The translations under genes were made by a program, and so were the position numbers. From Chiloscyllium plagiosum (Eukaryota), in assembly GCF_004010195.1 (NCBI RefSeq), contig NC_057754.1:392918-456917 (forward strand): 64,000 bases of DNA, read 5' to 3'. The notes below the pieces were generated by a model. It did no database searches. It worked only from the letters and a program-made list of their open reading frames with translations, and was not told the origin of the DNA. This document shows positions 1-58,124 of this stretch, piece after piece. Numbering within the stretch: position 1 is the first letter of the stretch; every line of letters begins with the position of its first letter.

Positions 1-370
1 AAATTTCCCCTCTCCTCCCCCCACCCCCATGCCAGATCTAACCCTCCGACTCAGCTCTGCCTTTTGACCTGACCTACCTGTTCATCTTCCTTCCTACTTG
101 GCCACTCCACACTTCCCATCAACCTGTCACAATCACATCCTACCTTCGCCACCAATTGCCCTTCCAAATACCTTTCCCCTAGACTACCCCTCCATTTATT
201 TCTCAGCCCCCTTCCCCCTCCCCCCTCTCCCTCTCCAGTCCTGACAAAGGGTTAAGCCCGAAACGTTGATTCTCTTGTTCCTCAGATGCTGCCTAACCTG
301 CTATGCTTTTTCCAGCGCCACATTTTATTGGCAGTGACTACTCCAGCAGTTGTAGTCCTCACTGTCTCCT
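1..370 (+). mobile_element. Penelope-like element 3' end / pseudo-LTR with degenerate hammerhead motif
   Basis: C-rich tract, then CTGACAAAGGGTTAAGCCCGAAACGTT (241-267) and the family tail ...GATGCTGCC...TTTTCCAGC...GTCCTCACT, shared with copies at 1719, 44128, 56934 and 58012. Confidence 0.7.
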
Positions 371-419
371 AGCCTCAGTTTAGACTCCCATCTGAAGAAC
401 TGCCATTTAGTTGAGAACT

Positions 420-915
420 CCAAACATCTGACCTGGAGAAGGTGCACAGGAAATAGACAAAAATGATACCTGGATCTAAGAAGGTTAAATTATGACAGCA
501 GTTTTTAGAAACTAGGCTTACATTCCTTTGAATTCAGAAGATAAAAGAGTGATTTAAATAAGTAGTTTAAACTGCTCAAAAAGATTTGAAAAATTAGATG
601 GACAGAAACTATTTTCTTTAATGGGGAAATCAAGATCATGGGGATGTTCATTTTAAAATTACAGATAGGCAGTTCAAGAATGAAATCACAAAGGATTGTA
701 AAAATCTTGACCTCTCTCTCTCTCTCTCTGAAGACTCAATGGATGCTCAGGATCAAGTGCAGCTTTCAAGACTGAAATTGATTGACTTTTAGTGGAAAAG
801 GATATCAAGGGATATGGAACAAATGTGGGTAAATGGAGTCCAGATACCAATTAGATGTGATCTAATTGAAAGGTGGACCTGACTCACAGGGCTGAATAGC
901 TACTCGTGTTCCTCT
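420..915 (+). mobile_element. Old CR1 LINE 3' fragment
   Basis: Decayed RT C-terminus (LEKVHRK...MIPG) and CR1-type 3' UTR motif gggctgaatagctactc. Confidence 0.6.
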
Positions 916-1817
916 GAATAGTTTAGCTGGACCATAAGACAGGAAGAAAGTTTTCAACTTGCTATTAGAGAAAAAAAAGAGGATTGAAAGGAGTCCCTCA
1001 CTGCAGCAACAATCCAATCTGACAACTCAATTGCACATTCATACAAGACCATAAGAGCAACTCCAGAAAACACTATTCACAAAGAATTACACATATTGAA
1101 AAAATGTATTTGTTTCAGCCAATTCCTAAGTCATCTCCTCTACCAAATCTACTCTGCCTTGTCCCTGGCATCACCCTAACTCAACCATGCCTGAGAACAG
1201 AGATCAATTCCTTTACTAGACTATGGACCAGACAGCAATGACTAAAACCATCAGATCACCCAAGGAGTCTGCTGCAGGATCCCCTCAATTTTGCCTGATT
1301 GCAGACCTCAAAACAAATATATTTATTAAACGTGGAAGAGTCACAGCTTCATACAAAATAGTTTCACTGAGAAGCCCACTGAGGCTCATTCCACCTCAAA
1401 AGGCAATATCCCCCACCCTTATGGGAGCTAATCAATTTTCCATTTCTCTCTCACACATGCCTACAAGTCAGCAACACGTCACCCCCACAATCAAGATTTC
1501 CTAGGTTTAGAGTAAAATAAGTGACACATTCCAGGGGAAAGTTACTGCCTGTAGCCTGAAGATTGCCAGTACGTAAGGATCTGCTCTTTAATGCACTCAG
1601 TCAGTTCACAGCTCTGTGACTCTTCTCCCTCCCTTGGCTTAGATCGAGGAAGCCTAGCAGCCATTCTGTATATCTGAGAATAGAGAAGACCATTCAGCAC
1701 AGTTAAGCTTAGTTCTATGAGGAGAAAGTGAGGTCTGCAGATGCTGGAGATCAGAGCTGGAAATGTGTTGCTGGAAAAACGCAGCAGGTCAGACAGCATC
1801 CAGGGAACAGGAGAATC

Positions 1818-1845
1818 GACGTTTCGGGCATAAGCCCTTCTTCAG
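1818..1845 (-). ncRNA. Minimal type I hammerhead ribozyme motif (family A)
   Basis: Minus strand reads CUGAAGA-A-GGGC-UUAU-GCCC-GAAA-C-GUC: intact core with palindromic ACGU stem III. Confidence 0.75.
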
Positions 1846-1879
1846 GAATGAGGAAAGTTTGTCAAACTTTCCTCATTCC

Positions 1880-2379: not shown

Positions 2380-2769
2380 TGTCTCGAACGTATGTGGGGG
2401 GTTCCTGGACTAGGGGGGATAGGACAGTGTCGAGGTAGGTAGGGATGAGTTCAGTGGGGCAGGAGCATGCTGAGACAATGGGTCGGCCAGGGTGGTCAGG
2501 CTTGTGGATCTTGGGAAGGAGGTAGAACCAGGCAGTGCGGGGTTCCCGGACTATGAGGTTGGAAGCTGTGGGTGGGAGATCTCCTGAGGTGATGAGGTTC
2601 TGTATGGTCTGGGAGATGATGGTTTGGTGATGGGAGGTGGGGTCATGGTCGAGGGGGCGATAGGAAGAGGTGTCCTCGAGTTGGCGTTTGGCTTCAGCGG
2701 TATAGAGGTCAGTGCGCCAGACTATCACTGCGCCCCCTTTATCTGCTGGCTTGATGGTAAAACTGGGAA

Positions 2770-3600
2770 ATGGCCTTGCCCTATCCAGACAACTGGGCAC
2801 TAGCCCCAGCTAGGCATTGGCTTTATCCAGACAACTGGGCACTGACCCCAACTTGGCAACAGCTCCATCCACACAACATGGTACTGACCCCACTGCACAT
2901 TGACTCTGGCCACACAGCTGGACACTGGACTCTTCAATGCATCGAGACATCAGATATTGGCCCTGTCAACATATCTAACACTGGACATAATCCCTTCAAT
3001 ACACTGGGCTTCGAACATTGGCTCCTTCAATACATCTGAGCAATAGCTCCAGGACCAAGTACAACTGACATTGACCTTTTCAATACAACCAGCATTGGAC
3101 AATGGCCCTTTCAAAACAAGTGATCTTGTAAATACTACAGACAATGGTTACTGACTATTTCAATACAACCCTCACTGGGCACTGACCTTTTCAATATAAC
3201 TGGCACTTGACTTTTAAATACACCTAACACTGAACATTAGCTATCTCCATACAACCAGCATTGGAAATCTCCCTTTCAATAAAACTAGCATTGCCTTTTT
3301 AAATACAACCAGCATAGGACACTGGAATTCTCAATACAGTTGGGCACTGGTCTTTTTTAATACAGTTGGTGCTGGGTCTTGACCTTTTCAACACAATCAG
3401 AACTGGCCTTTTCAACACAACCAGAACTGGCCTTTTTAATACAAAAAGCAATAGTCACTGACCATTTCAGTACAACCATCACTGGGCCTCGGCCTTTTTA
3501 AGACAATTATCACTGGACCACAGCCAATTAATAATAAACAGAACTGAACTTTTTAATATAACTGGCACTGGCAACTGGCATTTTCAACATAACTAGGGAT
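2770..3600. repeat. Degenerate minisatellite (about 30-40 bp unit)
   Basis: Recurrent CAATACAAC(C/T)(A/G)GCA(C/T)TGG...CCTTTT units; near-identical pair TATCCAGACAACTGGGCACT at ~2782 and ~2824. Confidence 0.7.
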
Positions 3601-10949: not shown

Positions 10950-11610
10950 TATCAGGCCAAGTCATAGAGATACTGTGGCTACAAGATCAGGTCAGAGTTT
11001 AGGAATTCAGTAGCAAGTAACTCACCACCATATACCACTTGCAAGTCAGGACTACGAGGGAATACTCCTCACTGGCCTCGAAAAGTGCAGCTCCAACATT
11101 AGTCAAAATGTTTGACAACATTCAGCACAAAGCAACTCACTTGACTAACACACCCACAAACATTCACCAACACTTCCTGCCACTATTGATGCTCAGTGGC
11201 AGCAGTGTCTACCAGCTACAAGATGCACAGCTACAACTCATCAAGGCTGCTTGAACAACACCTTCCAAACCATGATCACTACCATGCAGAAGAAAAGGCA
11301 GCAGATACATATAATCCACCTCCAAGTCACTCACATCATGACTTAGAAAAATATTGACGCTCAGTCAAAATTCTAGCTCTCACTAATATAACTGTGGGTC
11401 TACCTACACATGGACTGCAGTAGTTCAAGAATGCATCTCAGCACTAACTATTCCAGTCTGGATTAGAGCGGTGCTGGAAAAGCACAGCAGGTCAGGCAGC
11501 ATCCTAGAAGCAGGAAAATCAATGTTTCGGGCAAAAGCCCTTCATCAGGAACTAACTATTCCAGGGCTAATGCTCGCCAATAAATACTGGCATAACCAGT
11601 GAAGCCCATG
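10950..11610 (+). mobile_element. Old LINE 3' fragment (CR1/L2 group, different family)
   Basis: Decayed QVR-x-x-EYSSLA...AAPT...DNIQHKA; homologous fragments at ~34130-34990 (+) and ~52070-56400 (-). Confidence 0.55.
11457..11550 (-). mobile_element. Short hammerhead-bearing Penelope-derived insertion with 14-bp TSD
   Basis: TSD ACTAACTATTCCAG at 11443-11456 and 11551-11564; minus strand CTGATGAAGGGCTTTTGCCCGAAACATT. Confidence 0.8.
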
Positions 11611-12239: not shown

Positions 12240-15200
12240 TGTTAGACGCCTTGCTGATTTTGCATTTTTAAATTTTATTCTTTTATCATTTTGGTTTGGA
12301 ACTGGGAACTGTGAGCCAAAGATGAGTTTTGGACTGTGGCTAACAGGCTTGTGTTAAAAGGAAAACAAACTAAATTGGCTTTTATTTATTCATTAACTGC
12401 AGGTTGGTTCCTAATCAAAAGATTCTGCAGATGTTTCATCACCAGAGAAGAGCATTATGTTTAAACTGATAGCAGAAGTTGGCTATCAACAAGATCAGTA
12501 CCTGGGAATTGGTTCCAGTAAGTCTGGATAAGATCTTATGCTCAAGCAGATGGCAGATGTTGAATGGTAACAGGGTTCTCCTGAAGATGGACAGTGTTTC
12601 AGGAAATGGTCAGAGTAAATGGATTTTGGACTGTGTTTTATGAGAGAAAAGGAATCTAGCTATTGATGCTACAGCATGAAAATTTGAAATCTCCGTAACC
12701 TCCCATAAACAGCTCTTGAAAGCTCAGAGAATAGAAAACTAAAGTTTCTGTATTATTGTCTTTATCTAAGTATAAAGGTGATTCTGAATGACATCTTCAG
12801 AAAATCAACCAAGAAATCATCATATAGGCCTGTGGAACAATGCATTATGGAAACCACTTAAATAATCTGGCCAGTTTTGTTATTTTCTTTTATTTATCCC
12901 TTAACTGTGTTTGTTTCTGTCCATCTTTTGTGTTAATGGAGGTGAAACAAAGGCTTTTGGGTCTATAGCATAGGCCAGTTAGATTTGGCATTTATGTTCT
13001 GCTGAAGTTACTATATTGTTAATAAATTTGAGATTTTGGAGAAAATTTGTAGCTCAGGTTGTGGATCAAGTTGTAAAGTTGCTTTCTGAAATTTTGGTAA
13101 ATGGGGTCCAAATTGATATATTTGTTGATGGAGTTCTGGTTTGAATGCCAGGCCGCTTGGAATTCCCCTGTGTGTCTTTATTTAGCCTGTCCCAGGATGG
13201 ATGTATTGTCCCAGTCGAACTGGTGTCCCTCTTCGTCTGTGTGTGTGGATACCAGTGATAGTTGGTCATATCTTTAGGTGGCTAGTTGATGCTCATGTAT
13301 CCTGGTGGATAGCTTCCTGCCCGTTTGTCCAATGTAACGTTTGTTGCAATCCTTGCAGGGTATTTTCTATATGACATTCATTCTACTGGTTTTTGGTAAC
13401 AGGGTACTTTAAATTCATCAAGAGCTGTTTCAGTGTGGTGGTAGGTTTGTGAGCTACCACGGTGCCTAGGGACCGGAGAAGTCTGGTCGTCATCTCCGAG
13501 ATGTCTTTGGTGTATAGCAGGGTGGCTAGAATCTCTGGGTGCGTTGTGTCTTATTGTTTGGGTCAGTTATGCAGGAATTGGCAGACTGCGCTTATTGGGT
13601 GCCTGTTATTCCTGAATACGGTGCATAGGTGTTTTTTCTCGGCTTCTCATAGTTCCTGGGTCTTGCGGCTTGTTTAAATAATGTCCTCAAGGAGCTCTGT
13701 TTGTGGGTGTTCGGGTAATTGCTCCTGTAGTTGAGTACCTGGTCAGTGTGTGGCTTTCCTATACAGGCTGGTCTGCAGCTCTCCATTGGCTTTACATTCA
13801 TCCTGGGACAATACATCTGTCCTGGGACAGGCTAAACAAAGACACGCATGGGAATTCCTGGAGGCCTGACATTCAAACCAGAACTCCATCAACAAACATA
13901 TAGATTTGAACCCCATTTACCAACCTCTCAGAAACAGAACGGGAAATGATATCACCTTGATGTATGTTTGCTCGCTGAGCTGGAAGGTTTGTTTTCAGAC
14001 GTTTCGTCAACATACTAGATAACATCATGACTGAGCCTCTGGATGAAGCACTGGTGGTATGGTTCGCTTTCTATTTATGTGTTTAGGTTTCCTTGCATTG
14101 GTGATGTCATTTCCTATGGTGATTCCATTTCCTGTTCTTTTTCTCAGGGATGGTAAATGGGATCCAAGTCAATGTGTTTGTTGATAGAATTCCAGTTGGA
14201 ATATCTTGCTTCTAGGAATTCTCGTACATGTCTCTGTTTGGCTTGTCCTAGAATGGATGTGTTGTCCCAGTCAAAGTGGTGTCTTTCCTCATTTGTATGT
14301 AAAGATACTAGTGGGAGTGGGTCATGTCTTTTTGTGGCTAGTTGATGTTCATGCATCCTGGTGGCTAGTTTTCTGCCTGTTTTGTTACTGTTCTTGCAAG
14401 GTATTTTGTAAATGACAATAGTTTTGCTTGTTGTCTGTATAGGATCTTTCAAGTTCATTAGCTGTCGTCTTAGTGTGTTGGTGGGTTTGTGGGCTATTAT
14501 GATGCCAAGAGGTCTGAGTAGCCTGGCATTCATTTCTGAGACGTCTTTGATGTAGGGGAGAGTGGCTAGGGTTTCTGGAATGTTTTGTCTGCTTGTTTGA
14601 GTTTGTTGCTGAGAAATCAGCAGACTGTGTTCAATGGCACCCGTTTTTTTTTAATACACTGTATAGGTGATTTTCCTCTGCTCTTCGTAGATCCTCTGTG
14701 CTGCAGTGTGAGGTGGCTCATTGAAATAATGTTTTAATGCAGCTTCGTTTGTGGGCGTTGGGATAACTGCTTCTGCAGTTCAGTATTTGCTCTGTATGTG
14801 TTGTTTTCCTGTAGACACTAGTTTGAAGTTTCTTATTGGCTGTTTGCTCTACTGCGACATCTAGGAATGGCAGTTTGTTGTTGTTTTCCTCCTCTTTTGT
14901 GAATTTTATGCCAGTAAGGGTATTATGATGGTCTTGAACGTTTCCTGTAATTTGTTTTGTTTAGTGATGACAAAGATGTCATCCATGTAGCGGACCCAAA
15001 GTTTGGGTTGGATGGTTGGCAGAGTTGTTTGTTCCAGTCTCTGCATTACTGCCTCTGCTAAGATCCTACCACAATAAACCGAGACTGATAAATAGTAAGT
15101 GGGACAGAACACCAGAGGCTCACTGGTGATGTTACCTAGCATGGTGATGAAACGTCTGAGAACAAATCTTCGACATTCTATCAGCTCAGCGAGCAAATTG

Positions 15201-18815: not shown

Positions 18816-19910
18816 TAACATACATACAAACACAGGTGGTTGACAGGGCCCTTAGCCAGGTCTGACCCATCTCCCATATTTGGCCTCACCCTCTCTCTTC
18901 CCTTCCACAAAAGCGATAGGATTCCCCTTGTTCTCACCTACCATCCAACCAGCATCCACTCTATAAGATCTTCAGCAACCATTTCCCCCATCTCCACAGG
19001 GATGCCACCAGCAGACATATATTCCCCTCCCCTCCCTTGTCAGCCTTCCAAAGGGACCATTCACTCTGGGACACCTGGTCCACTCTTCTTCACTCCCAAC
19101 ACTCCCCTCAGCCCACAGCATCTTCCCCTGCAATTGCAGAAGGTGTAACATCTGCCTATTTACTTCCTCCCTCCTGAGTATCCAAGGCCTCAAAAACACC
19201 TTCCAGGTGAAGCAGCACTTTACCTGCTCTTCACTCAATCTAGTCTACTGTACTCGTTGCTCACAATGTTGTCTCCTTTACACTGGGGAAACAAAGCGCA
19301 GACTGGGTGATCGCTTTACAGAACTCCTATGTACTGTCCACAAAAATGACCCTGAGCTTCCAGTTGCCTGCCACTTCAACACACCACCATGTTTCCTGGC
19401 TAGCATTTCTGTCTCAGGCTTGCTGCAATGAAGTTCAGCGCAAACTGGAAGAACAGCACCTATTTTCCACTTGGGGCCTCTGCAGGCTTCTGGACTCAAT
19501 ATTGAGTTCAACAATTTTAGGGCTGGAGCACCTTCCTCCCCTGTGCTGACCCCAACCCTCACATACCAGGCCTTGACATCAAATGGCCTGCTACCACACA
19601 CAACCCATTGCTAGCTACTAATAGTCCCCATTCTCCCACCCTGACCTTTATCCACTCCTTTGTCAGTCCAACTGTTTTTCTCTCTCTTTGGGCTCTATCT
19701 CCACCTATCATTTCCTCCTCTCCCACCTCCCCCAACTTCTGCATAAATATCAACAATTTCCTAGCTACAATCAGTTCTGAAGAAGAGTCACTGGAACCCG
19801 CAACATTGACTCTGCTTTCTCACCATGGACGCTGCCAGACTTGTTGAGTTTTTCTAGCAATTTCTATGTTTCATTTGGATTGTCAGCATCTGCAGTTCTT
19901 TCAGTTTTTT
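18816..19910 (+). mobile_element. 5'-truncated Penelope-like element (GIY-YIG endonuclease plus pseudo-LTR) inserted in an old CR1
   Basis: RIPLVLTYHP and FTCSSLNLVYC-x-RC-x2-C-x-LLYTGETKRRLGDRF...PVACHFN; 14-bp TSD GTCTGGTGAACCTT at 18802-18815 and 19911-19924; decayed hammerhead at ~19776. Confidence 0.88.
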
Positions 19911-20569: not shown

Positions 20570-23500
20570 AATCATAAACTCATACAGTATGAAACAACCC
20601 TTCGGTCCTTACAGTCCATGCTGACCAAAATCCCAAACTAAACTAGTCCTACCTGCCTGCACTTATCCCTCCAAATATTTCTTATTCATGTACTTATCCA
20701 AGTATCTTTTAAATGTTTTAACTGTACCCACATTCACCGCTTCCTCTGGAAGTTCATTCCACACACAAACCACTCTCTAGTAAAACAGTTATCTCTCATG
20801 TCTTTTTAAAATCTTTCTCCTCTCATCTTAAAAATATGTCCCCTGTTTTGTTTATTTTTGTAAACTTGTAAAATGTTAAATTTCTAATAAAAATATCTAT
20901 TAAAAAAAAGCCCCCTAGTCATAGAATCATACAGTCACAGAGATGTATAGCATGGAAACAGACCCTTCTGTCCAACCCATCCATGCCGACTAGATATCCC
21001 AACCCAATCTAGTCCCACGTGCCAACACCTGGCCCATATCTCTCCAAACCCCTCCTATTCATATACCCATCCAAATGCCTCTTAGTCTTGAAATTTCCCA
21101 CCAGGAAAGAGACAGCTAAACACCTCTTTAACCATCCTATCATATGTGATACAAACTTGAAAGAATCATGTACCTGAATTCCGAGGTCTCTGTTCTACAA
21201 CTCTGCCCAAGGCCTTACTTTTAATTGTATAAGTCTTGCCTTTGTTTATTTTATCAAAATACAATACCTCACATTTATCCAAATTAAACTCCGTTTGCCA
21301 CTCTTCAGACCATTGACCCAATTGATCAAGATCTCTTAGTAATAAAATCAGAAATTGCTGGAAAAGTTCAGCAGGTATACCAGCATCTGTGGAGAAAAAT
21401 CAGAACCTCAGAGTTTGTAACTTTCTTCACTATCCACTATATCACCCATCCTGGTGTCTTCTGCAAAAGTACTAACCATGCTTTCTATTTTCTTATCTAA
21501 ATCATTTAAATAAATGACAAACAAAAGTGGACTCAGCCTCAATCCCTATTGAACAATGCTGGTCACAGGTCTCCAGTCCAAGAAAACAACCCTCCACCAT
21601 CACTCTCTGACTCCTGCTATTAAGCCAATTTTGCATCCAATTGGCAAGCTCACTCTGAATCCCATGTGACTATCCCTCATCATTCGTTGCCTCTTCAAAT
21701 GCACACAAATCCGATCTTTCAGAATCACTTTGAACATCTTACACACCAGCAAAGTCAGACTCACAGGTATATTATTCCCAGACTTCTGCTTACATCTCTT
21801 CTTAAACAAAGGCACAACATTATCCACTCTTCAGTCATTCAGCATTTCACCTGTATTTATAGATGATACAAATATTCCACAATTTCCTCCCTAACTTCCC
21901 ACAAAATCCTGAGATATACTAGATCAGGTCCTGGAGATTTATCCACCTCTATATCTTCTAAGACCTCCAGCACTTCCTCTTTTGCATTGTGAACTGTTTT
22001 CAAAACATCAATATTTATTTTCCTGAGTTCTCTAGCCTCAGTTTCTTTCTCCACAGTAAAAATTGATGCAAAATATTCATTTAATATCTATCCCATCTCC
22101 TGAAGTTCAACACAAAGACGAGCTCTGTGATCTTTAAGGGGCCTTACTCTCTCTCCAGTTGCTGTCTTGCTCTTAATGTACTTGTAGAGTCTCTTTGGAT
22201 GATCCTTAACCTTATTTGCCAAGGCTATCTCATATCCTGTCTCTGCCTTCCTGATCTCCCTCTTAAGAATGCCCCGACACTTTTTATACTGATAAAGTGA
22301 TACTGATACTGGGAATGTATACTATACTCCAGATGCGGTCTCACCCTGCATAATGAAAGCATAACCTCCTTGGCTTTGTATTCAATTCCCCTCACAATAA
22401 AAGGTAACATTTGATTAGTTTTCCTGATTACTTGCTGCGCCTTTTGTGATTCATGGACTTGGACACTCCGATCCCTCTACATCTCAGAGCTCTGTAATAA
22501 CTCACCATTTAATTAATATACTTACTTTTATTCTTCCAGTCACAATGGACAATTTTACATTGTTTCACACTATAAACTCCATATGCTAGACCTTTGCCTA
22601 GTCACTTAAATAATATTCCCTTGTACATACTTACGTCATCTTCACAATGTACGGTGCTACCTATCTTTGTGTAATCAGCAAACTTAGCAATCTTACCTTC
22701 CACCCCTTCATTCAAATCATTTCTATGAATTCTAAATAGTTGAGGTCCCAGCGTTGATCTCTGTTATGCACTGCTCATAAGTTCTTGCCAACCAGGAAGT
22801 GACCCATTTATAACTACTCCATTTTCTATTAGCTAACTAGTCTTTTATCCATGCTAATATAGAATCATAAAATTTTACAGTACAGAAGGAGGTCATTTGA
22901 TCCACTGTGTCTGTAAAAGCTCCCAAAACAGCTCCCTAACTAGGCCTACTCTCCAGCCTAACTCTGTAGCCCTCTAACTTCATCACTTTCAAACATGTAT
23001 CCAACTCTCTTTGAAACTGCCAATGTAATCCACCTCCACCACTCTCCCAGGCAGTGCATTCCAAATTCTAACAACTCTCTGATTAAAGAAATTCTCTTCA
23101 TCTCACTCTTAGCTCCCTTGTTGACAATCTTGAAATTGTGACCCCTACTTACTGACGTACCAACTAGCAGAAACAGAATAGCCTTCTTTACCCTGTCAAA
23201 ATTGTTCGTAATTCTGAACACCTCAATTCTTAATCTTCTCTGCTCCAAGAAGAAAAAGCCCTATCTGTCCAATCATTCCTTGTATTGAAAATCCTTTATT
23301 CCTGGTATCATTCCAGTTAATCACCTTTAACTTTTCTCCAGGACTTTAACATCCTTACTTAAAAAAGGTACTGAGAACTGCACACAATACTCAAATGTGG
23401 TCTGACCAATAATTTGCAGAGGTGTAGCATCACTTCCTTCCTTTTATACTCAATGCTTCTATTTATAAACCCAAGAATCCTATTGCCTTCTTAACAACAG

Positions 23501-24660: not shown

Positions 24661-24739
24661 TTCCTGACTCTCTTAGTCCCTTGGTTAGCCCTACACCTGT
24701 TATATACTTTGTGTTTTTGATGTGTTTGAGTTTGAATAG

Positions 24740-33630: not shown

Positions 33631-35359
33631 TTGTGGCACTATTGCTAATTTATTAATCTAGAGAACAAAAAGATTTCTGTTTCTGTTTCAGATTTCCAGA
33701 GAACTGCAGATGCTGGAAATGTGAAACAGAATCAGAAATGTCAGGAGTACCTCAGTCGATCTGGCAGCATCTATGGAGAAAAAACAGACCCAACCTTTCA
33801 GGTCCAGTGACCCTTTTTCAGTACAAAGATAGCTTACTGAGGTTTTCTAGCAATTTCTGTTTTTGTATTAATGCAGAGACGCTGGTAATGTTGTGGGGAT
33901 TCGGGTTCAAATTCCCCTACAACAGATTGTAGTATTTGAATTCACTAAAAATCTGGAATAAAAAGCCCATGGTGAACATGAAACTGCTGTTGACTATCAG
34001 GAAAACCCAACTGTTTCATTCATGCCGTTTGGGAAAGGACAAAGTCAGCAGTCACATGACAACAGGTTATGGTCCAACAGATTTATTTAAATCACAAGCT
34101 TTCAGAATGCTGCTCATCATCTTATGATGGCACAACATTCAGCACCGTTCACAACTTCTCAGATATCCAAGCAGTCTGTGTTCAAAAGTATCAAGGCTCG
34201 GACAATGTCCAGAATTGGACTGTCAACTAGAAAGTAATATTCATGACACACAAGTGTAATAACAGAGAGTCTCACCATCAGCTCTTAATATTTTACCTAC
34301 ATTACAATTCTACATGCCCTTGCAACTACATTCAAAAGGGGTTATCACTGATCAGAAATTGAACCAGCCAGTTAAATACTGTGGCTAAAAGAGGATGCTA
34401 GAGATTAAGAATTCTGCAGAAAGTAACTGATGTCTCATTCTGTCCACCATCTACAGCTCACGAAGCAAAGAATACTCTTCCACTTGCCAGATGACTGTAA
34501 TTCCTACTACAGTCAAGAAGCTCAGCATCATGCAGGACAAGACAGCCCATTTGATTGGCAATCATTTACCATCTTTAACATGCACTTTCTTCACTATCAG
34601 AGCACAGTGGCATCAATAAGAACCATTTACAAGATATACTGTAGTAAATCACCAAGACTGCTTTCAACAGCAACTTACAGGCGATGCGATGTCAATCATC
34701 GAGAAGAACAAGGACAACAGACGCATGGGAACACCATGCATGTTTCCCTCTGAGACACACACCACCCTGACTTGGAACTGTATCTACATTTGGGGAACTA
34801 GAATGTCAACTATATTCATTATCACTGCGTGAAAATTCTGAAACTCCCTCACTAACAGCACTGAGTGTGCATCAACACCCAAAAGATTGCAAGTGGTTCA
34901 ATAAAGTAGATCAGTGTCATCTCCTCAGGAGCAATTTGGGAATTAGGAGCGGACGACAAATGTCTATCTTTCCAGTAACACTTGCTAACTATAAAAGAGT
35001 TTTTTTTTAATTTTTAAAAGATGGTTCAGGAGGATCAGATATCAGGACATGAGATTAGGCATGATAGAACTACTTAAAATAGCAAAACTATTAAAGCAAT
35101 CAAAGAAGATAATGCCCTTGGTCTCAACAGAATGAAATATATGAATTTTAAAAGTATCTCAAGAAGAAATATAGAAGCAATATTACACACAGAGAAGGTT
35201 GCAGTATAGAGTTAGATAGATAACAACATATTTAAGAAGGAATATAGTGCATAACATAGGAACTATCAAGCAGCTTAAATATTGATGGTGGGGAAAATAA
35301 TGAAATCCCTGCTAAAGAAAAAAGCAGGAAAGTGTCCAAAACAAGTTTTCAAAATGTCA

Positions 35360-37020: not shown

Positions 37021-37709
37021 TTGTTCAACCTTACTGAACTTTTTGAAGCGGTAACAAAGGGTAGACAAGGGTAATGAAATAAAGGTAATCTGTGTTTCTA
37101 AAAAGCCATTGAAACTGAAAATGTATATTGACAGATTTTTGTTTACCAAAGGTATGGGGCAATGATGGGATCAAGTTTCTGATCAACCGTGATCTCATTA
37201 AATGGTGATGCACACTCTTGGTTGCCACATAATTAAGATAAATGAACAAGGTTGAAGCATGTGAAATTGTGACAAGTAGCAGAAAGGATAGCAAGCAATG
37301 TAGAGGTAAAAGGTACCTATTCAGAATTACAGCTGACTCCCACAAAACCATTATTGTTTACAATACATATTAATGATTTAGACTTCCGAATCAAAAACAG
37401 TTTCTAAATTTGAGAATGATGTAGGAATTTGAATTCATTAAAGGAAAAGAACACAAACACTGTGGCTAATTTCTGGATGGATAGAATTGAAAAGTTGGTA
37501 TGTTACACTGAGCTTATTAGAGCACAGTTGGAATGCTATACTGTATACAGTTCAGGTCACCTTTTAATAAAAGAGTTACAGAAGCACTGGAAAAGATTTT
37601 AAAAATTGCATGGATGGTACTGGAACAAAAGGTGAAATCTTGAGGATGATAAACAGGCTAGATAAGCATTCTCATATAATGTCTATTGTAAATACCAGGA
37701 GTATTACAA

Positions 37710-39810
37710 ACAAAAGCAGAAACTGCTGCTGAAACTCAGTAGGTCTGGCAGCAGCTATGAGAAGAAAGCAGAGTTAACTTCTGAGTCCAGTGACTTTTCA
37801 TCAGAACTGAGAGCAGTGAGGAAAATGGTCTATTTATACTGAAGATGAGATTTGAGGGAGTGATTAGATTAGATTCCCTACAGTGTGGAACCCGGCCCTT
37901 CGGCCCAACAAGTTCACACCGACCCTCCGAAGAGCAACCCACCCAGACACATTCCCCTACATTTACTCCTAACACTATGGGCAATTTAGCTTAGCCAATT
38001 CACCTAACCTGCATATCTTTGGACTGTGGGAGGAAACCCACGCAGACACAGGGAGAATGTGCAAACTCGACACAGACAGTTGCCCGAGGTGGGAATTGAA
38101 CCCGGGTCCCTTGCACTGTGAGGCAGCAGTGCTAACCACTGAGCCACCGTGCTGTGGGAGGAGAGGTGAGCGGATACTTAGAGATGGAACCCAGAGAAAT
38201 AGAGATGTCAAAGGGATTATTGATAACAGGCTCGGACAGAGGGAATAAATGATAATGAGAGCTGACAGTAGCAGAGAAGGATTGGCTGTAATGGATCTGG
38301 GTCAACCCATCTCATGTATTTCAGTTCCCATCCCTTCTCTCCCCTCCTACAACAACAGCTTTCACATTTAAAGGATTATAAGCTGCCATTTCCACCACCT
38401 CCAGCAGGATTTTGCAACCTGACATATATTTCCTTCCCCTCCTATGTCAGCATTCTGCAGGGACTGTTCCCTCCAGGATATCCTAGTCCAATATTCCTCC
38501 AATCCCAACACCTTCGCACATCCCCAGAGAACCTTCTTACGCAATTGCAGAAAGTATGACTTGCCAATTTGCCTCTTCCCTCTTCACTATCCCAGACATA
38601 CCTTCCAGGTGCAGCAGCGATTTACTGCACTTCATTCAATCTAATCTACTGTATTCACTGTTGATAATGAGGTCTCCTCTACTCTGGAGAGACAGAATAA
38701 AGACTGGGTGATAACTTTGTAGAAAACCTACATTCTGTCTGCAAAAATGACCCCAAGCTTCCAGTTAAATACCACTTCAACACACCATCATGTTCCCATG
38801 CCAACATTTCTGTTGCAGGCATGCTGCAGTGTTCCAGTGATCGTCAGTGCAAGTTCGAAAACAGTATCTCATTTTCCGGTTGAGTTCCCTGCAGCCTCAG
38901 GGACTCAACAGTGAAGTCAAGAACTTTAGAGCCTATTTCTGCCCTTACATGTTTCTTGCCCAGCCCCACACCTTGATTCTGTCTTTACATGGGTTGCTTT
39001 CATCACAGCCTATCCATTCTTTCCTTTCTCTCAGTTCTCGTTATCCCTTATTCAGCTTCTCTTTTGTGCTGACATACTATCAATACTCTAATCCCCTCAA
39101 TCTGCCTACCACTTTCAAGTATCTCTCTCACTCTCTCTCTGGGGTCCATCTCCACGTATCTGCCCATTTCCCATAGAGTCATTCAGCATGAAAACTGACC
39201 CTTTGGTCCAACTTGTTCATGCCGACCAAGTTTCCCAAACTAAACTAGTCACATTTGACTGTGTTTGGCCCATATCCAAACCTTGGAGATAGTGAGGACT
39301 GCAGATGCTGGGAAGACAATTGATAAAACATGGAGCTGCAAAAAGCACAGCAGGTCAAGCAACATCATGATGAAGTCCTGATGAAAGGTCCTGCCCGAAA
39401 CATCGACTCTCCTACTCCTCTGATGCTGCTTGACCTGCTGTGCTTTTTCCAGTTTCACATTTTATTGCCCCATAGCTGAACCTTTCCTAATGAAGTACCT
39501 GTCCAAATGTCTTTTAAATGTTGTAACTGTACTTGTATGTACCACTTCCGCTGGCAGTTCATTCCACATATGCTCCACCCTCTATGTGAAAAAGTTGTCT
39601 CTCAGGTTCTCTTTAAATCTTTCTTTTTTCACTTTAAAAATATTCCCTATAGTTTTGAACTCCAGTACCCTAGGAAAAATTTTAGTTACTAAGAATCGAA
39701 ACGTTAACTGCTTTCTTTCTTCCCACAGATGCTGCCAGACCAGCTGAATTTCAAAAGCAATTTCTGTTTTTGTTTCAGATCTCCAGCATCCTCAGTTCTT
39801 TGTTTTATTT
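37710..39810 (+). mobile_element. Decayed Penelope-like element (inverted pseudo-LTR, GIY-YIG region) with nested SINE, CR1 tail and hammerhead mini-element
   Basis: 38300-38930 is homologous to 18900-19520; inverted pseudo-LTR at ~37710-37850; CR1 tail at ~39172-39680; hammerhead CTGATGAAAGGTCCTGCCCGAAACATC at 39378. Confidence 0.7.
37864..38155 (-). mobile_element. HE1-type SINE
   Basis: Same head, body and tail as the other copies. Confidence 0.85.
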
Positions 39811-40592: not shown

Positions 40593-49591
<8,999 letters not shown>

Positions 49592-51411: not shown

Positions 51412-51860
51412 GTAGAGGAGCTGGTGTTGGACTGGGGTGAACAAAGTTTATCAATCAATCACAACACCAGGTTATAGTCCAATAGGTTTATTTGGAAGCA
51501 CTAGCTTTCGGAGTTCATCCGGTAAGACCATAAGACATAATTTATAGCAAAAGATTACAGTTCCATGCAGTTGAAATGATATATTGAATGAAGATAGATT
51601 ATTGATAAGTCTTTCATCTTTTAGAATGGGTTGTGGGTTTTGGTTCATTAATATGTAATCCCCAGAACTACTTTTAAGTAACATTTTCAGCTCAGACAAT
51701 GAATATTATCATTTCAACTGCATGGCACTGTAATCTTTTGCTATAAATTGTGTCTTATGGTCCTACTTCACAACTACCTGATGAAGGAGCAGTGCTCTGA
51801 AAACTATTGCTTCCAAATAAACCTGTCAGATTATAATCTGGTGTTGTGTGATTTTTAACT
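51412..51860. mobile_element. Non-autonomous fold-back Penelope-derived element (family C) with hammerhead
   Basis: Inverted termini ACAACACCAGGTTATAGTCCAATAGGTTTATTTGGAAGCA / TGCTTCCAAATAAACCTG..ATTATAATCTGGTGTTGT; TSD TGGTCAGCTA(C/T)AGT at 51398-51411 and 51861-51874; core CTGATGA-A-GGAGC-AGT-GCTCT-GAAA at 51778. Confidence 0.75.
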
Positions 51861-51880: not shown

Positions 51881-51965
51881 CTGAAAATGTGTTGCTGGAA
51901 AAGCGCAGCAGGTCAGGCAGCATCCAAGGAGCAGGAGAATTGACGTTTCGGGCATAAGCCCTTCT
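51881..51965 (-). mobile_element. 85-bp hammerhead-bearing insertion with 17-bp TSD
   Basis: TSD TCAGCTATAGTTCAGTG at 51864-51880 and 51966-51982; minus strand CTGAAGAAGGGCTTATGCCCGAAACGTC. Confidence 0.82.
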
Positions 51966-52069
51966 TCAGCTATAGTTCAGTGAGCAGCAACTCTCCTGAG
52001 TGAGATGTTGGTTCAAGTCACATTCCAGGACTTAGGTACATGATCCAGGCTGGATTACTAAGACAGTAT

Positions 52070-55000
52070 TTAAAAATTCTTTTGTGGATGTGGGTGTAGC
52101 TGGTCAGCATTTCCCATACCTAATTGCCCTGCAGAAGGTGGCATTTTTGAAGTACAGTTCTTGGAGTGCGAGAACATTCACTGCTGTTAGGAAGGGAGTT
52201 TTAGGACCATTGACCGTGAGGGAACAGCAATATATTTTGGATATTATTTGGTTTGGAGGAGAACGTAAAGGTGGTGTTCCCATGTATCTACAGCCCTCAT
52301 TGTTCTGAGAAAAGAGGTTGTGGGTTTGGAAAATGCTGTTGAGGGAAACTTGGTGAGTAGTTCTTGAGCGTCTTGTAGATGTTACACATTGCTACTGCTA
52401 TGCATCTGGTTGAAGTGAGTTAATATTGAAGGTGGATGGGTGCCAATCAAGTGGCTGCTTTGTCCTGATTAGTAGCAAGTCTCTTGACTGTATATTCATC
52501 TAGGCAAGTGGGGAGTGTTCCATCAAAGTTCTGTATTGTGCCTTTAGATGATGGGAGGCAGGAGGTGAGCTACTCAATGAAGAATTCCTAATCTCTGACC
52601 AACTGTTACAGCCACAGTGTATGTGTATATATATATATTGTTGAAGATGGTCATTGTGTGGAACTTGAGTGTGGATGTTACTTGCCACGTATCAGCTCCA
52701 GTCTGGATATTGTCTAGGTCTTGCTCTGTTTGGACATGGATTGTTTCAGTATCTGAAGAGTTCTGAATGGTGCTGAACACACAATCATCAGAAAACTTCT
52801 CAATTTCTGACTTTATGATGGACAGTCAGTCATTGATGAAGCAGTTGAAAAGGTGGACCTAGGTCACTACTGTAGAACTTAGTGATGTCATGGGACTGAT
52901 GATGACCTTTAACAACCATATCCTATTTTCCTTTGTGCTATATATGATTCTAATCATCGAGGAATTTCTTGCCTGATTCCTATTGACTCCAGTTTTGCTC
53001 TGGCTGCATGATGCCATATTAGCTCAAATGCTGCATTAAGATCAAAGGTATTCACACTCTCCTCACCTTTGGAATTCAACTCTTTTTTTCTATGAGTGAA
53101 CCAAGGCTATAATGAAGTCAGCAACAGAGTAACCAAATTGAGCATCAGTGAACAGGTTATTAATTTGCAAATATCATTAAATTGCACGGTCAACTACCCC
53201 TTCTGTTGCTTTACTGAATAGACAGTGCAGTAATTGGCTGAATTCGATTTGCCCTGTTTTGTTTTCTGTAAATACCTGGTCAGTTTTCCACATTTTCCAG
53301 CATATATGCCAATGTCAGTAACAGCTTGACCATAAGTGCAGCTTGTTTTGGAGAAAAAAACTATTGCAAGAATGATAGCTTTTGCAGTATCCAGTGCCTC
53401 TAGACATTTCCTGACACTATGTGGAATTGAGTGTAGTTAAGACAAAGATACATAGGTTCTTGATTAGTAACAAGATCAAGAGTTACAGGGAGAAGATACG
53501 AGAGGAGTTGAGAAATATATCAGCCATGGCAGAGCGGACTCAAAGGGCCAAATGGTTTAATTCTGTTTCCATGTCTTATGGACTTCTGGACCGAATTCTG
53601 AAGACTTGTATCTGTGAAGCAGTGGACCTCGGAAGGAGACAGCGATGGATCATCCATGTATAGTTCTGGCTGAAGATAAATACAAATTCTTCAGCCTTGC
53701 TGTATGCACTTGATGAGAATGAGGATATTTATGGCGCCTCCACCTCCAGTGAGTTAATTATCTGTCATCATTCATGACAATGTGTCCTTGTCACTGTTTG
53801 GTATTCAAATAGTCATCAGGTTGGTACCACGTTTTAGGTATGCCTGGTGCTGCTGTTGGGAAAGCCTGTTTGGAGAACAAATGTTGATCTCCTAGCTGGT
53901 TGGTAGTGATCGCATGGGGAGATGCCAAGCAATTGTGACTGAATATAATTCTGTTGCTGATGGCCAAAACACCTAGTAGATTGGAGGACTAGATTTGAGT
54001 TGCTAGATCTTTTTAGTGTCTTTGCCACTTAGAGTATAGAGTCATAGAGATATACAGCATGGAAACAGACCCTTCGGTCTAATCTGTCCATGCCGACCAG
54101 ATATCCCAACCCAATCTAGTCCCACCAACCAGCACCCAGCCCATATCCATCCAAACCCTTCCTATTCATATACCCATCCAAATGCCTCTTAAATGTTGCA
54201 ATTGTACCAGCCTCCATCCTCTAGCAGCTCATTCCATACATGTACCACCTTCTGCGTGAAAACGTTGCCCCTTAGTTCTCTTTTATATCTTTCCCCTCTC
54301 ACCCTAAACCTATACCCTCTAGTTCTGGACTCCCCGATCCCAGGGAAAAGACTTTGTCTATTTATCCTATCCGCCCCTCATAATTTTGTAAACCTTTATA
54401 AGGTCACCCCTCAACCTCCGGTGCTCCAGGGAAAACAGCCCCAGCCTGTTCAGCCTCTCCCTGTAACTCAAATCCTTCAACCCTGCCAACATTCTTTTGT
54501 AAATCTTTTCTGAACCCTTTCAAGTTTCACAACATCTTTCTGGTAGGAAGGAGACCAGAATTGCACGCAGTATTCCAACAGTGGCCTAACCAATGTCCTG
54601 TACAGCCGCAACATGACCTCCCAACTCCTGTACTCAATACTCTGACCAATAAAGGAAAGCATACCAAACGCCTTGTTCACTATCCTATCTACCTGCGACT
54701 CCACTTTCAAGGAGCTATTAGGACCTTACCATTAAGTGTATAAGTCCTGCTAAGATTTGCTTTCCCAAAATGCAGCACCTTGCATTTATCTGAATTAAAC
54801 TCCATTTGCCACTTCTCAGCCCATTGGCCCATCTGGTCCAGATCCTGTTGCAATCTGAGGTAACCCTCTTCGCTGGCCACTATACCTCCAATTTTGGTGT
54901 CATCTGCAAATTTACTAACTGTACCTCTTATGTTCGCATCCAAATCATTTATGTAAATGACAAAAAGTAGAGGACCCAGCACCGATCCTTGTGGCACTCC

Positions 55001-56400
55001 ACTGGTCACAGGCCTCCAGTCTGAAAAACAACCTTCCACCACCACCCTCTGTCTTATATCTTTGAGCCAGTTCTGTATCCAAATGGCTAGTTCTCCCTTT
55101 ATTCCATAAGATCTAACCTTGCTAATCAGTCTCCCATGGGGAACCTTGTCGAACACCTTACTGAAGTCCATATAGATCACATCTACTGCTCTGCCCTCAT
55201 CAATCCTCTTTGTTACTTCTTCAAAAAACTCAATCAAGTTTGTGAGACATGATTTTGGAAAGTCCTTGCATTTCCAAATACATGTACATCCTGTCCCTCA
55301 GGATTCCCTCCAACAACTTGCCCACCACTGAGGTCAGGCTCACCGGTCTATAGTTCCCTGGCTTGTCTTTACCGCCCTTCTTCAACAGCGGCACCACGTT
55401 TGCCAACCTCCAGTCTTCCGGCACCTCACCTGTGACTATCGATGATACAAATATCTCAGCAAGAGGCCCAGCAATCACTTCTCTAGCTTCCCACAGACTG
55501 GTAGTGCCACACACCATGAATGTTATCCTCACAGTGAAGACAGGACTTAATCTTATCAAGGACTGCACAGTGATCACTCTTACCAATACTATCATGAACA
55601 GATACACTTGGGGCAGGTAGATGAGGGCAATAAGTTTTTAACCTCTTGGTTCCCTCACCACCAGCTGCCGAGCCAGTCTAACGGAAATGTTCTTTAAGAC
55701 TTTGCCAGCTTAGCTGATCTTGGTCCTATTGCACCATCTTTTGTGACAGACATTGAAATTGGCCACCCAGAATACATTCAGTACCTTTGCCATTCTCAGT
55801 CCTTCCTCCAAGCAATGGTCAACAGGGAGGAGTATCAATTCATTAGCTGGGGGGTGGGGAGGGAGTTGTACGTGGTAATCAGCAGGAGGTTACCTTGCCA
55901 GCGTTTGACCAGAAACTATAAATCTTCATGGGGTTCAAAATCAACATTGAAGCTTCCAGGGCAACTACCTCCTGTGCCACAGTGCCTTCAACTCTGATAG
56001 GTCTATTCTACTAATGTGACAGCATATATTCAGGAATGCTGATGATGGTGTCTGAGACATTGTCTTTAAAGTATGATTCCAAAAGAATGACTGTACCAGA
56101 CTATTGCTTGTCTCGTCTAAGGTACATCTCCACTAATTTTGGCACAAGCCCCAGATATTGATTAGTACTATTTTACAGGGTCAACTGGGCTTGGTTTGTC
56201 ATGCTCATTTCCAGTGCCTAAGTTGATGCCAGGTGATCTATTCAGTTTTGATCCTTTCTTTAGGCTTTATACAACTGAGTGACTTACAGTTAAGCGTCAA
56301 CCACATTGCTGAAGCGTCTGAAATCACAAACAGATCCCAAATGAACCATCAATTTATGACAACTAGATCCTGGCTACAGATGAGTTTCCAGATGGGTTAC
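52070..56400 (-). mobile_element. Long decayed LINE (CR1/L2 group) with nested CR1s
   Basis: QDLDNIQTGADTWQV and MEHSPLA motifs; same family as ~10950-11610. Confidence 0.55.
54031..55496 (-). mobile_element. Young 5'-truncated CR1 LINE (same family as 27443-32275), with a small internal deletion at ~54718
   Basis: ORFs 54477-55607: PGNYRPVSLTSVVGKLLEGIL, YMDFSKVFDKVPH, GVPQGSVLGPLLF and KFADDTKIGG; (CTCTATGA)n tail. Confidence 0.92.
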
Positions 56401-56933
56401 CCCGCATTGTCAAGCTCCTGGATGAGGGGAGATGAACCCTTCTTTATTCATTCGCATCATCCAGTTAGTAGCAACAAGTTTAGTTTATGGTGCATTTTCT
56501 CTTTCTCTGCCCATTCTTGTGAATAATTATCATACCAAATAAATTTATTAAAAGAAGGCAATTTAATGACGTTTTCTTGAATGAACAAAATAAACATGTT
56601 TATTAATGACTAAATATGATAATAATAAAACAATATACATACATAGATTAGAAATGAGAAGTGGGTCCAAAATAACATTAATGTTAAGAGACAAACTGAT
56701 CTGTCTCAGTGGGTTATTGGGAAGTGTGGAACTGTGATAATTGAGCAGTCAATTTAGAGATATAACAGAAACTCTTATTCTCTCTCTTTCCTTCTGACTA
56801 ACTTGATGGCAAACTTGTAGCACTTTGTGCAGAATGTTCTTTACCTATGATGCAGGGGTTGACTAATGGATGTTTCTTCAAGTGTGACCTTCATAGTACA
56901 CTAGTACTTGAAACAGGCTAGTATACACAAGTA

Positions 56934-57134
56934 CTGAAAATGTGTTGCTGGAAAACCGCAGCAGGTCAGGCAGCATCCAAGGAACAGGAGAATCGACATT
57001 TCGGGCATAAGCCCTTCTTCAGGACTTATGCCCGAAACGTCGATTCTCCTGTTCCTTGGATGCTGCCTGACCTGCGCTTTTCCAGCAACACATTTTCAGC
57101 TCTGATCTCCAGCATCTGCAGTCCTCACTTTCTC
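56934..57134. mobile_element. 201-bp fold-back hammerhead-bearing insertion with 16-bp TSD
   Basis: TSD CTAGTATACACAAGTA at 56918-56933 and 57135-57150; inverted arms of about 75 bp; core at 56995-57022 (-). Confidence 0.85.
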
Positions 57135-58011
57135 CTAGTATACACAAGTATCTTAGTTCACTAGCACAAGAAGCTCAGAACAGGATTGAACTAGCTTTTA
57201 ATCCCTCATTCTTGTGTATTCTTGAAAAGTAAAGGCAAAAAGCATGTCTATTGCTCAGACCATTTTTTTCTCCCATCATATTCACTGAGAACTTTCTGGA
57301 GATTACAGTTTACATACATGAGGTTATTTACATACCTCCCTTTAACTACATCCTTTTGAAGGTTCCTTGACACTTCAGGTGTAATATTCTATGGTCACTT
57401 TCCAGATAGCCACTGAATTTACATCTGCAAGAGCTTTTGATACTCCTTTTTATATAAAAATACGATTAAAAATGAAGATGTTAGTACGTAATTCAGGATC
57501 CCTCTGTAATCATGACACCAGCTATGGCAGATATCCTTTCTTAAAGAGGATTCATGGAAATCCTGCCAATGTAGTATACTTACAACTTTCAAAAGGCATT
57601 CAATAAGGTGCCATACATGTTAACAGTCAAGTAAAGGACATTAGCATGGATAAGAACTGGTTTGTGGACAAGGACTAAGAATTAGAGAAAAATAGGGTGT
57701 TTTTAAGTTGGCAGGCTGCAATTAGTGGGATGTGGCAAGAATCAGTGGTGTGGGCTCAGCTATATACAATCTTTATTCATTACTTGGGTAAAGAGACAGA
57801 GTAACGTATATGCATTTACAGGATGCAAAGCTAAGTGGAAATGCAAGCTGTGGATGGAAAAGACTCAATTAAGTGACTGGGCAACACAATGGCAGAAGTA
57901 TGAGGTTATTTAGCTTAGTGATAAAAACAGAAACCCAGAATATTTTTTAAAAGATTGAAACTTGTGAATGTTCATGTTCAGAAAGACTTTAGTATGTAGT
58001 ATACTAATAGA

Positions 58012-58124
58012 GGAGAAAGTGAGGACTGCAGATGCTGGAGAAGAGCTTATGCCCGAAACGTCGATTCTCCTGTTCCTTGGATGCTGCCTGACCTGCTGCG
58101 CTTTTCCAGCAACACATTTTCAGC
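58012..58124 (+). mobile_element. Short family A insertion with 14-bp TSD and 5' inversion
   Basis: TSD AGTATACTAATAGA at 57998-58011 and 58125-58138; hammerhead core truncated (only GCTTATGCCCGAAACGTC remains). Confidence 0.8.

Follow-up and report, generated by a model that had tools for sequence, protein, structure and literature searches.

Minimal hammerhead ribozymes (min-HHRs) were described in 2014 as a class residing in the pseudo-LTRs (pLTRs) of metazoan Penelope-like elements (PLEs) (Cervera and De la Pena, PMC4209133). According to the accessible portions of that report, these min-HHRs are of type I without loop 3, carry a palindromic 15.2-16.2 segment, a single base between A9 and 10.1 and a G10.1-C11.1 pair, and occur as several consensus families per genome, mostly as solo truncated copies with some opposite-strand pairs. 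All of these features are common to the shark sequences analysed here. The same portions report low cleavage activity, name no shark (text and two supplement files) and contain no mapping of copy ends. They give ~9,000 matches in Xenopus tropicalis and ~4,000 in coelacanth, against ~200,000 core matches here (~20x the Xenopus number, the search descriptors being different). Stem I of the shark subfamilies A1 and A2 also differs, with only 2 bp and a U.U mismatch.

The Poseidon element PAc of Anolis carolinensis was assayed in vitro (Frangieh et al. 2024, PMC11167929), whereas the shark families are described here from sequence, folding models and RNA reads. In the available parts of that paper, the tail is accounted for by two adjacent reverse transcription start sites 3' of the hammerhead, uncut RNA serves as the main substrate, and, as here, RNA-seq ends at the cut site are absent. 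The hammerhead activity needs the element's protein, and the PAc ORF starts at stem II; in shark family B, an AUG is formed by A9-U-G10.1. The shark differs in that families A and D appear Neptune-type by their linker, and the pile-up of 5' ends at stem I in families A, C and D is unreported in those parts. PLE hammerheads are conserved, yet they are poor cleavers and dispensable for insertion in vitro.

The insertion units of EN+ PLEs (Craig et al. 2021, PMC8557442; Arkhipova et al. 2013, PMC3846280) have 5' truncation, an inverted pLTR, a one-sided 30-40 bp tail, and target-site duplications (TSDs) or microhomology joints in common with the shark copies. In contrast to those units, most copies here are cut down to 90-130 bp and pivot at the 5' edge of the hammerhead. 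Animal non-LTR retrozymes (bioRxiv 10.64898/2026.07.22.740005) also carry type I hammerheads related to PLE pLTRs, and one chondrichthyan has them. They are tandem arrays of at least 2 units, with a maximum of 14,255 in axolotl, whereas the window copies are solo or inverted. A tandem-repeat search of the window found no arrays of type I hammerhead units, the arrangement by which retrozymes are recognised. Our literature search, with subscription journals, Repbase and Dfam outside its coverage, found no report on PLE hammerheads of sharks or other elasmobranchs, nor on PLE transcription starts or a pile-up of 5' ends.

The window is the whole 64,000-nucleotide stretch of Chiloscyllium plagiosum DNA that was analysed. 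A preliminary description listed about 15 hammerhead motifs in it, and all 16 listed motifs were found, with offsets of 0-3 nt. The features are as follows.

241-267, plus: family A hammerhead (AGUC stem I variant), G8A, likely dead; in pLTR fragment 236-326
1818-1845, minus: family A1 hammerhead, core, stem II and ACGU fully intact, weak stem I (2 bp, U.U, A-U); in pLTR 1751-1865
2381-2791, minus: Penelope-like RT remnant (KPADKGG, PKIHK), sense to and upstream of the 1845 hammerhead across the N gap 1880-2379
11521-11548, minus: family A2 hammerhead, palindrome ACGU changed to ACAU; copy start at -2
13960-14647, minus: decayed hammerhead within a family B2 pLTR; a GIY-YIG remnant (ORF 14144-14650) lies upstream
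15123-15156, plus: family B hammerhead, A6G
18967-19431, plus: GIY-YIG endonuclease remnant with CX4CX2C linker (apparently Neptune-type), upstream of a family D hammerhead
19777-19807, plus: family D hammerhead, A13C and ACAU, likely dead
25759-25792, plus: family B2 hammerhead, palindrome AUGU; short inverted arm 25649-25690
26258-26291, minus: family B1 hammerhead, core and ACGU intact, C.C mismatch in stem II; left arm of fold-back pair 26220-26494
26424-26457, plus: family B1 hammerhead, fully intact; right arm of the same pair; an AUG is made up of A9, the inserted U and G10.1, and the translation it opens (first 11 letters not shown) matches a shark PLE protein in the N-terminal region
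33700-33824, minus: decayed family D pLTR fragment outside the earlier list; start at -2
37708-37844, minus: decayed family D pLTR fragment outside the earlier list
39378-39404, plus: family A hammerhead (AGUC/GACU stem I), G10.1A and ACAU; inverted arm 39285-39366
42448-42481, minus: family B2 hammerhead, ACAU
44131-44158, plus: family A hammerhead, ACAU; solo copy 44126-44216, start at -4, 15-bp TSD
45263-45787: family B2 pLTR 45631-45787 (plus) next to an inverted RT remnant 45263-45631 (minus); hammerhead 45709-45742 with U4A and G12A
48563-48592, plus: family D hammerhead, G12A and AUGU
51778-51806, plus: family C hammerhead, AGCU changed to AACU; inverted partner 51420-51627
51942-51969, minus: family A1 hammerhead with intact core; copy start at C3, stem I without its 5' strand; 16-bp TSD
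56934-57136: family A1 fold-back pair; 56995-57022 minus (AUGU) joined to a tail-bearing plus arm starting at +8
58035-58124, plus: family A1 pLTR fragment, A6G; short inverted tail 58010-58047

Beyond the earlier list, fragments bring the window to 25 pLTR pieces, plus those at 15123 and ~21349-21404. The motifs are far above chance expectation. The strict descriptor matched the window twice, against a mean of 0.03 (maximum 1) in 200 dinucleotide shuffles, and the relaxed descriptor matched 66 times in position-picked DNA totalling 1.386 Mb, where three Markov-3 controls of equal size gave 0, 0 and 2 matches.

The preliminary description was only partly confirmed on the family count, the palindrome and the core. 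Instead of three families (A, B and C) there are four, and the earlier family A is a mixture of A and D. The motifs at 19777 and 48563 form the fourth, older family D, with stem II GGGUC/GACCC, stem I AGUU/AACU and a median identity of 76%. The loop-less, palindromic helix III is ACGU in families A, B and D, as described, and AGCU in family C. The core (C3-U4-G5-A6-N7-G8-A9, G12-A13-A14-A15.1 and U16.1-H17) is kept between families while stem II differs, as claimed; it is present in the family types, in 11/16 listed window copies and in 207,945 genomic copies, and the other five listed copies (241, 15123, 19777, 45709 and 48563) are core-mutated as given above. Two of the 16 motifs are fully intact (1818-1845 minus and 26424-26457 plus). 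Another two keep the core and the palindrome with stem I lost or stem II mismatched (51942-51969 minus and 26258-26291 minus). In seven, the core is intact and the stem III palindrome is broken (11521-11548 minus, 25759, 39378, 42448-42481 minus, 44131, 51778 and 56995-57022 minus). The palindrome is unbroken in 6/16 listed copies.

The one extra base noted after A9 is present in 65/66 relaxed-descriptor matches, and every family has the G10.1-C11.1 pair in its main type. The covariation of stem II between families was borne out by the table of pair types, and stems I and III covary as well, in a sample of four to eight families that are not independent of descent. In stem II, pair 10.2/11.2 is G-C or U-A, and pair 10.3/11.3 is G-C, A-U or C-G. 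In stem I, pair 2.1/1.1 is C-G, A-U or U-A, and pair 2.2/1.2 is U-A, C-G or A-U. The stem III pair 15.2/16.2 is C-G or G-C.

The assignment to PLE pLTRs holds: the motifs are minimal type I hammerheads lying sense to, and downstream of, RT and GIY-YIG remnants. Upstream of family B copies, REFLE/YIGQT EN motifs were found at 180-360 nt in at least 13 loci, and the best match of the family B RT is a Chiloscyllium punctatum protein (85% identity, RVT_1). We provisionally place family B in the Penelope/Poseidon clade, which is recognised by a missing linker and by RT phylogeny with Poseidon, on the likeness of its EN motif and the AUG-at-stem-II layout common with PAc. Family A has Neptune-type EN motifs ~350-640 nt upstream of the copies in at least 8 loci. 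For family C, a GIY-YIG remnant lies 630-720 nt upstream across an N gap, at one locus only (L067). A CX4CX2C linker is present in the window ORF 18967-19431 and in locus L127. The CX2-5CxxC linker between RT and EN is a feature of the Neptune clade (PMC8557442), and families A and D are Neptune-type as judged by this linker. All PLE material recovered was fragmentary, with no intact full-length ORF between two direct pLTRs. Locus L106, with D motifs in tandem 3.3 kb apart, was considered as a full element and rejected; it has no open PLE frame and looks like a local duplication. Pfam recognised none of three short PLE fragments and called the RT and endonuclease of a neighbouring LINE instead.

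The genome-wide descriptor search that had been proposed covered 3.56 Gb. It gave 207,945 core matches versus 514 for the reversed control, so the predicted very large ribozyme complement stands. Exact family patterns numbered 53,445 (A), 10,975 (B), 24,035 (C) and 372 (D), with 0 in controls. Core, stem II and palindrome are kept in ~160,000 copies (95% Poisson range ~125,000-200,000), and a stem I of at least 2 bp is retained in 55/66 sampled matches. Extrapolation from 431 pLTR fragments in 1.386 Mb gives ~one million. The earlier interpretation was thus supported in class, covariation and large complement, and its wording of one ribozyme per 4 kb was not; that figure includes decayed and truncated copies, and intact core plus stem II occurs ~48 times per Mb, or once per 21 kb. 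Rfam reported no hammerhead in the window even at E<=5. Therefore, Rfam-based annotation misses these motifs, as had been predicted of standard annotation, and single intronic copies can pass wrongly for host regulatory ribozymes. Rfam miRNA matches on the fold-back pairs were rejected as driven by hairpin shape.

Decay of the genomic copies was compared between the core and the downstream sequence. Non-CpG core changes in family A were 100/1250 versus 342/4125 downstream (p=0.77), and in family C 37/540 versus 191/2322 (p=0.33). CpG sites were changed at 19-45%. The core in families A and C decays at the rate of the neighbouring DNA; therefore, the genomic copies are not under selection, and by this comparison no selection on host copies was seen in either family. 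The family D core decays less (20/290 versus 137/1131, p=0.011), which may come from mixed subfamilies or alignment error.

The 3' ends of the copies fall at two positions ~35 nt apart, approximately +91/+126 (A1), +82-92/+127 (A2), +74/+113 (B1) and +90/+122 (C1). A 30-40 bp 3' tail and an inverted pLTR, both optional features of EN+ PLEs, are present. Head-to-head inverted (fold-back) pairs hold 209/431 copies and usually combine one short and one long 3' end. TSDs of 9-19 bp were found in 44/530 copies. The 5' ends pile up at -5..-1 in 115/398 A, C and D copies (12.9% per base at risk), compared with 16/398 in the seven bases around the cut site (0.65% per base at risk). Genome-wide, 121,032 A1 anchors gave 6,810 junctions at -3/-4, 777 at the cut site, 309 at +25 and 313 at +33. 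A sharp peak of 5' ends right at the cut site was rejected: the junction rate there (1.44%) is only ~twofold that nearby (0.73-0.74%), and 14/20 cut-site loci are fold-back joints. This twofold rate makes a small cleaved fraction possible.

We consider it very probable that the motifs are min-HHRs in the pLTRs of at least four PLE families, and that nearly all copies are short, neutrally decaying remnants, likely made from uncut RNA. The element's protein would prime reverse transcription at two tail sites just 3' of the hammerhead, for which the anole element sets an in vitro precedent. When priming occurs within the 5' pLTR, the cDNA would run off the 5' terminus of the RNA, which would lie a few bases before C3, and yield the 90-130 bp copies. 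Ribozyme cleavage, judging from the literature, would be slow, dimeric via the 4-nt palindrome and aided by the element's protein, and the ribozyme would matter to active master elements and not to host copies.

We lean towards the RNA 5' end being a capped transcription start. A single untemplated base between the target duplication and the A at -3 was G in 4/4 cases (p=0.004), two of which come from a batch picked for a non-C base at -4; the sole single extra base at another boundary was A. Though the sample is small, the extra G suggests a signature of cap copying, and so a capped, uncut, internally primed RNA. A further step, which we offer tentatively, is that the Neptune-type capped transcript starts at the first base of stem I, that a 90-130 nt cap-to-tail module is copied, and that the ribozyme is a cap-removing off-switch and not a template-making step. 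Under the capped-start reading, internal priming on this module would account for the ~one million fragments. Cleavage would then remove the cap and, in family B, also the start codon; the genomic junctions would be a record of which RNA form gets mobilised, and this would possibly be the largest hammerhead complement yet counted in one genome.

The pile-up could instead reflect reverse transcriptase stalling or jumping, after stem I is unwound or at an upstream pyrimidine tract, with microhomology joining and no transcription start. We regard this as a real contender, although a somewhat doubtful one. The pile-up falls on the 5' strand of stem I, the 5' ends spread over -10..+12, and 18/30 TSD-resolved hot-zone A copies were joined by microhomology or without an extra base. 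Subfamily A2 has no cap-G excess at -4: among 100 listed bases counted by eye, G was 18, C 25, A 25 and native T 32, and among 20 extra A2 loci none was informative for a single extra base. However, family B, whose hammerhead fold is as strong or stronger, shows no pile-up at -3 (1/33); this absence also weighs against the preferred reading. The hazard upstream of -10 is again ~1% per base, the four single extra bases next to the -3 A are all G, and the microhomology joints at -3 have G at -4 in 4/8. In A1, A2 and D, the surroundings of the -3 A resemble an initiator (consensus YYANWYY).

It is unlikely that the short copies form a non-autonomous family of their own, SINE-like or retrozyme-like, that is copied from other short copies. 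The extrapolated fragment number, the fixed 5' and 3' ends and the TSDs would fit such a family, but the short copies share the sequence found at the ends of those long copies that extend into the ORF, and hammerhead arrays are absent from the window.

Among the data for the preferred reading of remnants from uncut RNA, reads of a poly(A) single-cell run cover the A1 and B1 pLTRs and span the cut site without any accumulation of ends there, in a library sampled at ~2% that cannot show starts or 5'-OH ends. The predicted hairpins of two window fold-back pairs are -249 and -144 kcal/mol, and such pairing of about half of the copies would mask the ribozyme. In 8/8 modelled cases, the dimer fold could form but would lie 5-16 kcal/mol above the predicted minimum for the dimer. 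A large pool of active ribozymes cutting host transcripts (introns, UTRs) as trans-dimers and affecting host RNA processing is very improbable: the ~160,000 copies with core, stem II and palindrome, the frequent stem I of at least 2 bp, the read coverage and the complementarity of the decay products ACAU and AUGU, by which decayed copies could still pair, speak for it, but the neutral core decay in A and C, the fold-back pairs with their predicted hairpins, the unfavourable modelled dimers, the absence of read ends at the cut site in this run, and an activity that the available portions of the published reports give as low (PMC4209133) or dependent on the element's protein (PMC11167929) speak against it.

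With >100,000 young copies of one family, the role of the PLE hammerhead becomes testable by junction counting. These counts indicate that hardly any of the inserted templates had been cut, and that stem I was the end point of many.

All 16 hammerhead motifs named in the preliminary description were found in the window. Two of them are fully intact:

1818-1845, minus strand, fully intact hammerhead
26424-26457, plus strand, fully intact hammerhead

In 2 of the 16, the core and the palindrome are retained, but stem I is lost or stem II is mismatched. The loop-less stem III palindrome is broken in 7 of the 16, mostly through CpG decay to ACAU or AUGU, and the catalytic core is changed in 5. The two decay products, ACAU (11521, 39378, 42448, 44131) and AUGU (25759, 48563, 56995), are fully complementary, which means that a paired stem III could still form between decayed copies. 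A strict descriptor gave 2 matches in the window against a mean of 0.03 in shuffles; a relaxed one gave 66 in 1.386 Mb, where Markov controls yielded 0, 0 and 2. These controls exclude a chance origin. An Rfam scan of the window reported zero hammerheads, which bears out the suspicion that standard annotation misses them.

The proposed division into three families was retained, except that a fourth family, D, was hidden within A:

19777, family D hammerhead
48563, family D hammerhead
33821, minus strand, family D hammerhead
37805, minus strand, family D hammerhead

Stem III had been described as ACGU throughout; family C carries AGCU instead. The expected covariation between families was verified in stems I, II and III, with the core and G10.1-C11.1 constant, and one extra base follows A9 in 65 of the 66 matches. 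Every sequence feature examined for the minimal hammerheads of Penelope-like elements (PLEs) is present in the motifs, and the four given in the available text of Cervera and De la Pena (PMC4209133) are all matched. By these testable features the motifs belong to this known class. Tandem retrozymes, as described in the accessible part of bioRxiv 2026.07.22.740005, were rejected, the window copies not being tandem. A candidate tandem PLE elsewhere in the genome (L106, C7:106658500-106668499) was also rejected: its two near-identical D motifs, separated by 3,255 bp, enclose no PLE frame and seem to stem from a local duplication. The literature searched yielded no paper on shark PLE hammerheads. 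The set stands out for its unusually high copy number and for a clue to the template that lends itself to testing.

That the genome carries a very large complement of hammerhead motifs was supported by a generic core pattern, which does not require a paired stem II and is non-palindromic in 3 of the 100 matches listed: it matched 207,945 times in the 3.56 Gb genome, against 514 for the reversed control. Exact family patterns matched 53,445 (A), 10,975 (B), 24,035 (C) and 372 (D) times, with 0 in the controls. Extrapolation from 140 position-picked regions (139 stretches and the window) gives about 160,000 copies per genome with core, stem II and palindrome, and about one million terminal-repeat fragments of every kind. 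Xenopus tropicalis has about 9,000 and coelacanth about 4,000 such motifs in the available text of PMC4209133, with a descriptor unlike the present one.

When the DNA upstream of each motif was translated, ends of Penelope-like ORFs appeared, oriented like the motif itself. At least 8 of 102 family A matches have Neptune-type endonuclease motifs ~350-640 nt upstream, at least 13 of 41 B matches have REFLE and YIGQT motifs at a distance of 180-360 nt, and 1 of 52 C matches has a GIY-YIG remnant upstream, across an N gap; the remaining copies are mostly too short for the ORF to be reached. The top database match of a family B reverse transcriptase comes from Chiloscyllium punctatum (85% identity), which marks the genome as shark-like. 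The window is repeat-rich, with LINE reverse transcriptase and endonuclease remnants beside those of PLEs:

2381-2791, minus strand, PLE reverse transcriptase remnant upstream of the 1845 motif
18967-19431, endonuclease remnant with CX4CX2C linker, upstream of the family D motif at 19777
26573-30136, 54707-55637 and 35316-36709, LINE fragments (reverse transcriptase and APE-type endonuclease, Pfam)

Several PLE insertions, including the fold-back pair at 26220-26494, sit in fragments of a LINE, which we take from its motifs to be CR1-like. A minisatellite (27-bp unit, ~13 copies) lies at 24730-25101. Each family has two 3' ends ~35 nt apart, head-to-head pairs hold 209 of 431 sampled copies (usually one arm tailed and the other tailless), and target-site duplications (TSDs) of 9-19 bp occur in 44 of 530 young copies. 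Paired 3' ends, inverted pairs and TSDs are the marks described for endonuclease-bearing PLE insertions in the available parts of PMC8557442 and PMC3846280.

Within families, non-CpG change in core and downstream sequence was 8.0% and 8.3% in A, and 6.9% and 8.2% in C; family D differs (6.9% versus 12.1%, p=0.011). Because the core in A and C changes at the downstream rate, selection worked on the master elements and left the inserted A and C copies free of it. Dimer cleavage by such variants is recounted in a review (PMC6765202) and PMC4209133, as far as their available texts go. In all 8 cases put through nearest-neighbour modelling, the double-hammerhead fold came out less stable than the dimer minimum, by 5-16 kcal/mol; a fold so disfavoured fits the low published activity.

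Were cleaved RNA the template, copies would begin at N1.1. Such copies are rare. With C3 as +1 and the base immediately before it as 0, 115 of 398 A, C and D copies have 5' ends at -5 to -1, and 16 of 398 within 7 bases round the cut site. Genome-wide A1 junction patterns (three non-native bases required before the A1 segment; 121,032 anchors) gave 777 junctions at the cut site, 309 at +25, 313 at +33 and 6,810 at -3/-4, the last from a separate anchor pooling two positions, so that its ratio to the others is only approximate. For A1 an alignment artefact was ruled out, because the sequence upstream of the pile-up is duplicated target or inverted arm. Of twenty cut-site loci, 14 proved to be fold-back joints; among the others, 3 were small internal lesions and 3 were plain junctions. 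In some copies (L349, L351, L363, L277) the first 6-12 bases of the copy itself occur a second time between the TSD and the start at -3, a pattern that two attempts at joining might leave.

The base at -3 is A in A1, A2 and D, in a context that resembles the initiator consensus. Among TSD-resolved copies, the single untemplated base at the -3 boundary was G in 4 of 4 instances (L260, L274, L326, L341; p=0.004), two of them from a batch of 40 selected for non-C at -4; the sole single extra base at other boundaries was A. Such a G is ascribed to cap copying in L1 and SVA insertions (PMC3287187, available text). Against a cap signal here stand the small number of cases, the way that batch was selected, and A2, where G was in no excess at -4 (18 of 68 non-native bases by visual count). 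A transcript starting at -3 and primed at internal tail sites, a priming described in the accessible text of PMC11167929, would give exactly these copies of 90-130 bp, and we lean slightly towards this start as their source. In D. virilis Penelope the terminal repeat contains an internal promoter without a TATA box, but there an intron separates start from hammerhead (PMC2377424, in the part available).

In one poly(A) single-cell run (X19), of which ~2% was read, 1,587 reads covered a stretch of A1 and 490 a stretch of B1. No position had many molecule ends in this run, a library type that reveals neither starts nor 5'-OH ends; 76 A1 reads carry loose sequence ahead of position -3, just as genomic copies do at that boundary. 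B1 depth is undiminished across the cut site. B1 reads (L055:1486-1581) are strand-biased ~9:1 at the hammerhead; the A1 ratio is ~1.6:1, a difference that hints at transcription driven by the element itself in family B.

Family B shows no pile-up of 5' ends (1 of 33). Several B1 copies, overlapping loci being left in the count, begin at about -147 to -150, which may be the family's own fixed 5' end. The family B hammerhead has an AUG made up of A9, the inserted U and G10.1, and the frame that this opens agrees with the N-terminal region of a PLE protein from shark (26430-26498, plus strand); cleavage would remove this putative start codon. The anole Poseidon element PAc shares this layout, its ORF starting at stem II.
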